A DNA stretch of 64,000 nucleotides, from NCBI RefSeq assembly GCF_044647545.1, contig NZ_CP172818.1; one strand, written 5' to 3'. A program made the translations under genes and the position numbers. The notes under the pieces are model-generated. The model worked only from the letters and a program-made list of their open reading frames with translations. It ran no database searches and was not told the DNA's origin. Positions 41,250 to 44,954 of the stretch are shown piece by piece (position 1 is the stretch's first letter; each line of letters opens with the position of its first letter). This stretch comes from Escherichia coli. Lineage in GTDB: Bacteria; Pseudomonadota; Gammaproteobacteria; Enterobacterales; Enterobacteriaceae.

Positions 41250-41359
41250 GTTTATTCTCTTTCTGAATATAAAAATGAACCCTCAACGCTTCCCTCAATG
41301 TTTCGGGAGCCATGCGGGTTCAATCATACACGGGAAGCGAGGCGCTTCCCATCACGTTA

Positions 41360-42478
41360 TTATTTTTCAACCTGCTGAACGTCAATTCGACGCGCTTCGT
41401 CCAGCTGACTGGCTTTCGCACGAATGCGCGCTTCCAGCTGGTCGATCATATCGTTGTTGTCCAGACGGTCTTTGCGCACGCCATCTTCATAGAGGCCGCT
41501 TTTCTTGTTGCCGCCGGTGACGCCGAGTGTAGAAACCAGCGCCTCACCTGGGCCATTCACCACGCAGCCGATAATCGAAACGTCCATCGGAGTGATGATA
41601 TCTTCCAGGCGTTGCTCCAGCGCGTTAACCGTACCGATAACATCAAACTCCTGACGCGAACAGGTTGGACAGGCGATGAAGTTGATCCCGCGCGAACGGA
41701 TACGCAGCGATTTCAAAATATCGAAACCGACTTTGATCTCTTCGACCGGATCGGCCGCCAGCGATACGCGCAGCGTGTCGCCGATGCCTTCAGACAGCAG
41801 CAGACCTAAACCAATGGCGGATTTAACCGCCCCGCTGCGCGCACCACCCGCTTCGGTGATCCCCAGATGCAGCGGCTGATCGATCTGTTTTGCCAGCAAA
41901 CGATAAGACTCAACAGCGAGGAAGACGTCAGACGCTTTCACGCTGACTTTGAACTGATCGAAGTTCAGGCGATCGAGATGATCAACATGACGCATGGCGG
42001 ATTCCAGCAACGCCTGCGGCGTCGGTTCGCCATACTTTTCTTGCAGATCTTTTTCCAGCGATCCGGCGTTAACGCCAATACGGATCGGAATGTTTTTATC
42101 GCGCGCACAGTCAACCACCATGCGAATACGCTCTTCATTACCGATATTGCCAGGGTTAATACGCAGACAATCGACGCCGTATTCCGCTACTTTCAGCGCA
42201 ATGCGATAGTCGAAATGGATGTCAGCCACCAGCGGCACGTTAACCTGCTGTTTGATGAGTTTGAACGCTTCTGCCGCGTCCATCGTCGGTACGGAGACAC
42301 GGACGATATCAGCGCCAACACGTTCCAGCGCCTTGATTTGATTGACCGTTGCTTCGACGTCTGTCGTACGCGTATTGGTCATGGACTGTACGGCGATGGG
42401 AGCACCATCGCCAATCGGCACATTCCCAACGTAAATACGTGTTGATTTTCTACGTTGAATTGGAGCCTGGTTATGCAT
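41360..42478 (-). CDS. ispG: 4-hydroxy-3-methylbut-2-enyl diphosphate synthase (flavodoxin)
   Basis: 372 aa; C-terminal Fe-S Cys ligands (ACPTCSRQ). Confidence 0.94.
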
Positions 42479-42504: not shown

Positions 42505-43515
42505 TTACTGCGCCGGTGATTGTTCGGCATTGAGGGTCAGACGCGCAACCTGGTTAGTTCTGATAAAACGACTCAGATCGACAGGTTTCCCTTGATACTG
42601 GATCTGTACTGCGGCTGGCGCACCAATTTTCAGTTTGTACGGTGCCTGGCCGGTTAAGTTCAAATTACCGTCTTTACGCTGCATACCGCTAAACAGTTTT
42701 TTACCGGTAGCATCGGTGACTTCCAGCCAGCAATCGGCAGTAAAGTTCATCACCAGCGCATTCGGGTCAACCGCCGGCGTAGTCACGCCAGCCTGATCGG
42801 TTGGCAACGGCGCAGCGCCATCTGGTGTTGTTGTTGCCGCTGGTGCCGGAGTCGCAGCGGTATCAACATTTGCCTGCGAAGGTGGAACAACCGCATTCTG
42901 TTGTGAATCGACGGTTGGCGATGGAGCCGTCGTCGCGGCAGGTGTTTGCGTGTTAGTTGCGGTGGTATCCACCGGTGATGTCGGCGTGGTCGCCATAGCC
43001 TGATCTGTGGTTGTCGACGTATCTAACGGTACACTCTGGCTTTGATTATTATTCAGTTCCGCAGAAGATTGATCGGCCATAGTGGTGATCTCTTCCTGCT
43101 GAGCTTTGTGGTCTTGCCACCACCAGGCACCGCTCAGGCCAATAACCACAAACAACACCAGCCAGGTGAAGGTCATCAGCCAGCCGTCACGTTTTTTGCG
43201 GCGTTTACCGAGGGAAAAACTCTGCATCGGCGCAACTTTTGCAGCCCGTAGTGGAGCCTGCTTTTCCAGCCCTGGCAGCAGTTCTTCTTCTGGAATATGT
43301 ACCAGACGCGCATAAGAGCGGATATATCCGCGCAGGAATGTTGAAGCAAGATCGGCGGGTGCCTTATCTTCTTCAATGTCGCGTACCGTGGAAACCTTCA
43401 GGCAAAGTCGCTCGGCAACGGCCTGTTGACTAAGTCCTAGTTGTTCGCGAGCATTACGCAGGCGAGCGCCGGTAGTAAGTGCTTCATTTTGGTCGTGCGT
43501 GGCTTCAGTATTCAT
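42505..43515 (-). CDS. rodZ: Cytoskeleton protein RodZ (HTH - TM - Pro/Thr/Ala-rich linker - periplasmic domain)
   Basis: 336 aa; Xre-type HTH N-terminus, TM helix, low-complexity T/P/A linker. Confidence 0.92.
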
Positions 43516-43799
43516 TCGCTGCAGGTACGTTTAAATGAGAATTGAGATGCCGGTGAACCATCATGCTCACCCACACCGCGAAACATCCGTTAAGTTAACC
43601 GTTATCATACAGTATAAGACCGTCTGTGTGCTCGTGACAAAGCCCACATTCACTAAGGCTAACTTACTGTTGCATCGTTACATACTGCCTTAAAGTCAGC
43701 AAAAACGCACCGTTAATATTGACCAGACAATTGCAACTTAATACTTCATTCATAAAAGATTACGCCACGGTACATAAAGTAACCGTGGCGTAATGGCTA

Positions 43800-44954
43800 T
43801 CAGACCGCTTTAATATCGATGGCTTCACCCTGCATCCGTTTACGCAGGGTACGTTTCGTACGGTCGATAACATCGCCCGCCAACTGACCACAGGCAGCAT
43901 CGATATCATCACCACGAGTTTTACGCACAATAGTGGTGAAACCGTAGCTCATCAGCACTTTAGAGAAACGGTCGATACGACTGTTTGAGCTGCGTCCATA
44001 CGGCGCGCCAGGGAACGGGTTCCACGGGATCAGGTTGATCTTACACGGCGTATCTTTCAGTAGCTCCGCCAGTTGGTGCGCGTGTTCAGTGCCGTCGTTA
44101 ACGTGGTCAAGCATCACGTATTCAATAGTGACTCGGCCCTGATTGGCGTTGGATTTCTCCAGATAACGGCGTACCGCAGCAAGGAACGTTTCGATATTGT
44201 ACTTTTTGTTGATCGGCACAATTTCGTCACGAATTTCGTCGTTCGGCGCGTGCAGGGAAATTGCCAGTGCAACGTCGATCATATCGCCCAGTTTATCCAG
44301 CGCCGGAACTACACCGGAAGTGGAAAGCGTCACGCGACGTTTTGACAGGCCAAAACCGAAATCATCAAGCATGATTTCCATCGCCGGAACGACGTTGTTC
44401 AGGTTGAGCAGCGGCTCGCCCATACCCATCATCACGACGTTAGTGATTGGGCGCTGACCGGTGACTTTTGCTGCGCCGACAATTTTCGCCGCACGCCACA
44501 CCTGACCGATAATTTCCGATACCCGCAGGTTGCGGTTAAAGCCCTGCTGGGCGGTGGAACAGAATTTACACTCCAGCGCACACCCCACCTGCGAAGAGAC
44601 GCAGAGCGTGGCACGGTCGTCTTCCGGGATATACACCGTTTCGACGCGCTGATCGCCAACGGCAATTGCCCATTTAATGGTGCCGTCAGATGAACGCTGT
44701 TCTTCAACCACTTCCGGTGCACGGATTTCCGCCACCTCTTTCAGTTTGCCGCGCAACACTTTGTTGATGTCGGTCATCTCATCAAAGTTGTCGCAGCAAT
44801 AGTGATACATCCACTTCATCACCTGATCGGCGCGGAAGGGTTTTTCACCTAAATCTTTAAAAAACTCCCGCATCTGCTGACGGTTGAGATCCAGCAGGTT
44901 GATTTTTCCATCTTTAGTGGTGACGTTTTCAGGTGTGACTAATTGTTCAGACAT
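43800..44954 (-). CDS. rlmN: Dual-specificity rRNA/tRNA m2A methyltransferase (radical SAM)
   Basis: 384 aa; radical-SAM CALECKFC motif. Confidence 0.94.

Follow-up and report, generated by a model that had tools for sequence, protein, structure and literature searches.

The feature analysed here is a low-complexity segment of the E. coli rodZ gene. We read it, with a probability of roughly 0.88, as a disordered spacer of RodZ that tolerates variation, is present in the window as a minority 336-aa allele and contains two diverged patches, each of which would have been introduced in a single step. The window, i.e. the whole stretch of DNA analysed, comprises 64,000 nt of E. coli contig NZ_CP172818.1 (assembly GCF_044647545.1). 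Within it, the coding sequence occupies 42505..43515 on the minus strand (336 aa plus stop in the ORF list) and its product is identical to RefSeq protein WP_001090832.1, annotated as cytoskeleton protein RodZ also in MS20657 and E. coli IAI39. The reading frame is intact and is flanked by rlmN (384-aa ORF, 43800..44954) and ispG (372-aa ORF, 41360..42478). At the DNA level, the gene matches the rodZ annotated in E. coli FDAARGOS_497 (NZ_CP033850.1) with 100% identity.

The domain layout is that of RodZ. Pfam places the cytoplasmic helix-turn-helix domain HTH_25 (PF13413, E = 2.6e-14; score 53.2 bits, cut-off 24.6) at residues 18–79 (43279..43464, minus strand) and the folded periplasmic domain RodZ_C, or DUF4115 (PF13464, E = 2.8e-24; score 85.3 bits, cut-off 23.9), at residues 255–327 (42535..42753, minus strand). 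A single transmembrane helix, assigned to residues 112–133 (43117..43182, minus strand), agrees with the AlphaFold2 model, where it begins at residue 110, with PDB entry 6s0k, whose chain k (‘Cytoskeleton protein RodZ’) aligns to residues 106–138 and thus covers the membrane helix only, and with a review of RodZ that gives the same residues 112–133 (PMC6946637). The basic juxtamembrane sequence KRRKKRD precedes this hydrophobic stretch. Judging by the two Pfam domains, the single membrane helix, the orthologous rlmN-rodZ-ispG position and the DNA identity to an annotated rodZ, the gene is rodZ, as it had been named in the preliminary description. RodZ, a bitopic protein of the inner membrane, connects MreB filaments with the machinery for cell-wall elongation; the K-12 protein binds MreB and is required for rod shape (PMC6946637). 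The sequence of the cytoplasmic domain encoded here is that of K-12, and the helix-turn-helix domain has no amino-acid differences across the three main E. coli alleles.

Residues 135–254 (42754..43113, minus strand) form a periplasmic Thr/Pro/Ala-rich linker. The preliminary description had located such a low-complexity linker at 42700–43100, and the protein strings quoted for it are present in the translation. Threonine (25), alanine (21) and proline (15) make up 61 of the 120 linker residues, or 51% compared to 22% in the rest of the protein, which is ∼7–8 standard deviations above expectation when 22% is taken as background. Sequence entropy is 3.35 bits in the linker and 4.08 bits elsewhere; there is just one lysine or arginine, and only 7 of the 120 residues belong to the set I/L/M/F/W/Y/C. 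No Pfam domain was matched between residues 79 and 255, and no PDB chain covers the linker. In an AlphaFold2 model based on a 32-sequence alignment, residues 154–249 have pLDDT below 50 and are assigned by DSSP as coil, without secondary structure, while RodZ_C is beta-rich with pLDDT of 85–93. The biased composition and the low model confidence together indicate that the low-complexity linker is real and is predicted to be unstructured.

This segment corresponds to the already described disordered periplasmic region of RodZ, so that neither the feature nor the allele is new. According to the review, in the periplasmic part of RodZ a disordered region precedes a folded beta domain, disorder being supported by NMR-based prediction for Bacillus subtilis RodZ and by cross-linking in E. 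coli; RodZ dimerises or self-interacts through the disordered region, and the periplasmic part is largely dispensable for rod shape, which is retained by RodZ1-142 and RodZ1-155 (PMC6946637). The linker would tether the folded RodZ_C domain to the membrane helix. Since this function would depend on an approximate length and a Thr/Pro/Ala-rich composition rather than on the exact sequence, the linker should accept amino-acid replacements and short in-frame indels to which the flanking domains are intolerant. The same features recur in other Ser/Thr/Pro-rich disordered extracytoplasmic linkers, such as those of B. subtilis RodZ and of streptococcal membrane proteins: biased composition with no predicted structure, a position between membrane anchor and folded ectodomain, and rapid sequence change at conserved length. 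The Ser/Thr-rich disordered regions of the streptococcal proteins are reported to be O-glycosylated (PMC11092751), whereas the E. coli linker, known here from its sequence, gives no hint of modification.

The length of the linker varies between strains. We surveyed complete E. coli genomes (n = 5,426), 5,425 of which carry rodZ once, with matched gene lengths of 1008, 1011 and 1014 nt. These lengths define three classes. The window belongs to class I (360-nt linker, 336 aa, ∼98–100% identity to the window; IAI39, FDAARGOS_497), with 197 genomes or 3.6%. Class II (357-nt linker, 335 aa, 95.3% identity; Nissle 1917, ATCC 11775) accounts for ∼1,097 genomes (20%), and class III (363-nt linker, 337 aa, 84.4–85.8% identity; K-12, BL21, O157:H7, ATCC 8739) for ∼4,130 genomes (76%). 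The class I count was obtained with the class-specific patch B1 described below, and the class II count was derived by combining the B1 and patch A counts. When the linker alone was used as a query, just six genomes had 90–95% identity to the window. Thus, alignment of rodZ across strains bears out the earlier expectation that strains differ by linker indels, the linker length being non-identical among related strains (335, 336 and 337 aa in 5,425 genomes).

The same alignment explains why the ORF is one codon off the 337 aa given in the preliminary description, a figure which is correct for K-12-type RodZ (the review writes RodZ85-337; PMC6946637). Relative to K-12 RodZ (YfgA, 337 aa), which has the same rlmN-rodZ-ispG locus and domain order, the window allele has lost two codons (LNNN--QSQ versus LSSNSEQGQ) and gained one (TPAATTAP versus TP-AVTAP), and hence encodes 336 aa. 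The helix-turn-helix domain, juxtamembrane segment, transmembrane helix and RodZ_C are protein-identical between the two; all of the ∼23 amino-acid replacements fall between residues 136 and 251. The window linker DNA is 84.4–85.8% identical to that of K-12, being two codons shorter in a segment that we call patch A and one codon longer in a second one, patch B. RodZ of phylogroup B2 (Nissle 1917, ATCC 11775; 335 aa, WP_001090835.1) is much closer: it is identical to the window allele save for patch B and three isolated synonymous sites. In patch B, the window allele has a 36-nt patch with 13 substitutions and an extra Ala codon, where the B2 allele has AVTAPAPAVDP.

A RodZ of 335, 336 or 337 aa should therefore be regarded as normal allelic variation and not as an annotation error, and all alleles found already carry RefSeq protein accessions. 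That the 336-aa length reflects faulty sequencing or assembly of a 337-aa gene can practically be dismissed. Low-complexity regions are error-prone, and the record of E. coli P276M (NZ_CP044293.1) does contain a frameshifted rodZ; but 197 complete genomes, produced by many laboratories, and eight independent metagenome contigs carry the 336-aa allele, and this allele differs from K-12 by two separate in-frame changes and ∼50 substitutions, not by a single-base error. The annotation of the P276M record lists rodZ, rlmN and pbpC each as frameshifted or partial, so this record looks like a low-accuracy assembly rather than biology.

Judging from the named strains only, linker class appears to track phylogroup, and on the same basis it could serve as a cheap lineage marker distinguishing K-12, B2 and IAI39 types. 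We found no relevant literature on rodZ polymorphism by phylogroup.

Differences between the classes are concentrated in the two patches. Patch A (rodZ nt 453–541; 42975..43063, minus strand) exists in two E. coli forms: A1 is found in the window and in B2 and F types, and A2 in the K-12 type. It holds the two-codon length difference, located at the 43044/43045 junction and adjoining an (AAT)3 run at 43045–43053. When the 335-aa allele is compared with the 337-aa K-12 allele, 21 of the 42 substitutions fall within one 100-nt window (permutation test, P < 5e-5), accompanied by the 6-nt indel. A 108-nt query with the K-12 form of patch A matched 4,108 genomes at ≥95% identity, 23 at 80–95% and 1,294 at 75%, and so divides the genomes into groups of 1,294 and 4,131. 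In contrast, a control query of 108 nt from the N-terminal domain was ≥99% identical in 5,423 of 5,424 genomes. Patch B1 (rodZ nt 577–612; 42904..42939, minus strand) is specific for the 336-aa class and includes the extra Ala codon within 42934–42939; it was found in 197 of the 5,426 genomes, in a single copy each and always in rodZ. Here, 13 of the 16 substitutions that separate the window allele from the 335-aa allele fall within 31 nt (permutation test, P < 5e-5), and the two alleles differ at 8 of 11 third codon positions compared to 3 of 324 elsewhere.

Within a gene that is otherwise nearly identical across the species, the E. coli forms of each patch are as distant from one another as from E. 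albertii. For patch A, p-distances between E. coli forms are 0.22–0.23, and those to E. albertii are 0.21–0.25; for patch B the corresponding values are 0.33 and 0.31–0.36. The domains, on the other hand, differ by 0–0.012 within E. coli and by 0.078 from E. albertii. Despite being saturated at silent sites, B1 keeps the residue pattern T-A-P-x-P-x-V-D of its counterpart. By this comparison B1 looks like a homologous, long-diverged copy rather than the product of a random mutation burst, which points to short-tract recombination from a diverged lineage. Outgroups carry B2-like sequence at this position, so B1 is the derived form. Patch combinations A1B1, A1B2 and A2B2 exist; a query with the artificial chimera A2B1 found no genome above 96.2% identity, and that best match was itself the plain K-12 allele. 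With three of the four possible combinations present, the four-gamete test gives no signal of exchange between the patches. The data fit two successive events: a split between A2B2 and A1B2, and the subsequent origin of A1B1 from A1B2.

The preliminary description had called the linker repetitive at the DNA level and hinted that such repeats promote indels. The first statement did not hold up, and the second is without support. Tandem Repeats Finder returned no rows even at a minimum score of 30, a repeat finder gave short imperfect pairs only (the longest being 27 nt at 78%), and repeated 5- to 10-mers in the linker were not above the level of 2000 codon-order shuffles (P = 0.11–1.0). We therefore rejected tandem or dispersed DNA repeats as a source of the variation. 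Among the motifs that had been named, GCGG occurs three times in the linker (2.9 expected) and CCGTCG once (0.16 expected); GGTG alone is enriched (8 versus 3.1 expected), since its complement CACC arises at junctions of Thr and Pro codons. True micro-repeats are limited to the (AAT)3 run in patch A and an (ACA)3 run at ∼42827–42835, both read on the coding strand.

These results also bear on the notion that the linker is a simple-sequence contingency locus, at which replication slippage at DNA repeats frequently generates length variants. The two three-unit runs do lie within the linker, and the Asn run varies between species, being NNN in the window allele and NN in E. albertii. In addition, a 310-aa variant (P0017; NCBI E. 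coli, 3 contigs) lacks the 25 residues between two 8-nt GCACCAGC copies, motifs that belong to B2-type DNA, with the junction deduced from the protein only. Nevertheless, we found neither a tandem array nor the many within-lineage lengths, out-of-frame ones included, that are expected of a contingency locus. Tandem repeats are absent, k-mers recur no more often than in codon-shuffled controls, and the 5,425 genomes show just three common lengths, every one of them divisible by three and linked to its own sequence class instead of being scattered within classes. Moreover, the indels are accompanied by dense substitutions, which slippage does not produce. We consider slippage very improbable as the origin of the length classes.

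P0017 is one of several rare RodZ variants (P0017, P0033, P0066 and P0074) of 305–319 aa with in-frame linker deletions of 18–30 residues. Two other short variants, P0071 and P0073, lose the transmembrane helix or part of RodZ_C and may be artefacts.

Protein-level constraint on the linker was compared with that on the rest of the locus. Between the window and the K-12-type allele, dN is 0.095 and dS 0.37 in the linker, compared to 0 and 0.05 in the folded parts of rodZ. Across E. coli alleles, linker dN ranges from 0.02 to 0.095 and omega from 0.16 to 0.37; dN is zero in both rodZ domains, RlmN and IspG, and the RlmN and IspG proteins of the window are each identical to those encoded beside the K-12-type allele. 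In an alignment of nine E. coli alleles, 64 of the 85 variable nucleotide columns lie in the linker. Because linker omega is 0.16–0.37, constraint on its protein sequence is relaxed, not absent, and is without sign of positive selection; the same pairwise values led us to reject positive selection as a cause of the divergence.

A similar pattern extends over the family. We compared 82 sequences, 79 of them from species representatives of Enterobacteriaceae. Linker length stays within 106–127 residues and the T/P/A fraction within 0.36–0.55, while mean pairwise amino-acid identity per column is 0.52 in the linker versus 0.90 in the domains; 94 of the 165 linker columns contain gaps, compared to 10 of the 219 domain columns. 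Biased composition, no stable predicted structure, and length and composition kept without conservation of sequence are the properties of an intrinsically disordered linker. Read from these alignments, the pattern is the signature of a spacer for which length and composition matter and sequence does not. The linker thus offers a compact natural case in which a spacer keeps its length and composition as its sequence changes.

Synonymous sites also diverge faster in the linker. At conserved residues, four-fold-site divergence is ∼2.1–2.4 times that of the domains in many close Enterobacteriaceae species pairs (rodZ loci L005–L084), a rough figure as the species pairs are not phylogenetically independent. 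Misalignment was rejected as the cause, the excess remaining when three identical residues were demanded on each side, and so was weaker codon bias, third-position usage and entropy being equal in the linker and the domains. Relaxed protein constraint alone does not explain this excess. Within E. coli, dS between the 335- and 337-aa linkers is 0.20, compared to 0.05–0.13 in flanking genes. Relaxed constraint and the twofold synonymous factor together cover much of the whole-linker divergence in E. coli; the two patches exceed both. Saturated patches and the synonymous excess thus present small puzzles for studies of recombination and mutation in low-complexity coding DNA.

We propose that each patch entered in a single step, short-tract recombination from a diverged and unsampled Escherichia lineage being the most likely route, and would then have been inherited with the phylogroups. 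Clustering of the substitutions, genus-level distances of the blocks and low diversity within each class speak for a single-step origin. The likeness to mosaic genes made by short-tract recombination lies in the sharp-edged, genus-level blocks inside a near-identical gene, as well as in a breakpoint located in the linker of strain EcN_Sk; the difference is that no donor was found here and that only three of four A/B combinations occur. BLAST searches for a donor of B1 or patch A gave no close match among 80 Enterobacteriaceae species representatives. A degenerate protein-level pattern had eight matches in metagenome contigs, all of them E. coli with the identical patch, and an exact pattern had none in viral contigs. 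Clustered, sharp-edged substitutions were thus seen and a donor lineage was not found in these collections, and for this reason the recombination origin is something we infer. A second point against import is that both patches lie within the linker and that the divergence stops almost precisely at its boundaries, a pattern to be expected of accelerated in-situ change no less than of import.

Other sources of B1 were considered and rejected. Ectopic templating would call for a second copy, and a 54-nt query at E ≤ 10 hit one place per genome, always rodZ. A compensated frameshift or a small inversion was set aside because a comparison by eye of the two versions, in both orientations, gave no common word of more than 5 nt, which means that the change is substitutional.

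A different account of the patches is that they represent diverged linker haplotypes kept by balancing or diversifying selection, for instance through a periplasmic antagonist or partner, or polymorphisms that predate the species. In its fullest form, the patches would be long-lived haplotypes, as old as the split of the Escherichia species and maintained by selection on an interaction of the periplasmic RodZ spacer. Several observations are in its favour. The patch A forms are ∼25% apart within E. coli (75% identity), as far as E. coli is from E. albertii, and intermediates are few (the 23 genomes of 5,425 at 80–95% identity). E. marmotae and E. albertii also have the short form of patch A (NNN--QSQ), and the long one recurs in E. 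fergusonii, E. whittamii and Citrobacter. At conserved residues of patch A, 5 of 16 sites differ synonymously (hand count), compared to ∼5% of third positions elsewhere. If haplotypes were indeed selected, the interaction concerned could be self-association or contact with another protein, be it a partner or an antagonist, and repeated exchange of haplotypes between lineages would underlie the twofold synonymous excess. However, we know of no interacting antagonist; omega is well below 1; the family-wide synonymous excess already accounts for much of the whole-linker divergence; and the periplasmic part is reported to be largely dispensable. Furthermore, the classes appear to follow phylogroups, as plain vertical inheritance predicts, K-12, BL21, O157 and ATCC 8739 being separated from Nissle, ATCC 11775 and IAI39. 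We judge selection on ancient haplotypes to be unlikely, both in its general and in its fullest form, and prefer single-step introduction of the patches into a tolerant spacer.

Two genomes stood out. The rodZ of EcN_Sk (NZ_CP172017.1, 2999–4006) is a mosaic, with the 5′ part of the linker of B2 type and the 3′ part of K-12 type. It is 99.7% identical to an artificial chimera, has its breakpoint inside the linker and is the only such case among 5,425 genomes; the Ndk protein of this strain is also of K-12 type. In Escherichia sp. MOD1-EC7003, ispG and hisS are 3.7–4.7% diverged from E. coli, the rodZ domains only 0.8–2.1%, and the linker is of K-12 (A2) type. The closer relationship of rodZ compared to ispG and hisS, together with the A2-type linker, suggests that rodZ was exchanged between the MOD1-EC7003 lineage and E. 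coli.

Scans of the linker for further coded elements indicate that it encodes nothing else. A hidden RNA was rejected, the only Rfam hit being a microRNA family at E = 0.89, and so was a hidden or antisense gene, promoter and terminator scans being at or below shuffle expectation; plus-strand ORFs of 64–69 aa are as expected opposite GC-rich ACN/CCN/GCN codons. The rlmN-rodZ spacer (43516–43799, 284 nt) differs by 0.4–0.7% among the E. coli alleles compared and has one sigma-70-like site at 43611–43640 on the minus strand, with the scan overall not above shuffle expectation. Directly downstream of ispG, a full-length match to the small RNA sroE (Rfam RF00371, 116.6 bits) lies at 41269–41360 on the minus strand; this sRNA is already known from E. 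coli and has no connection with the linker.
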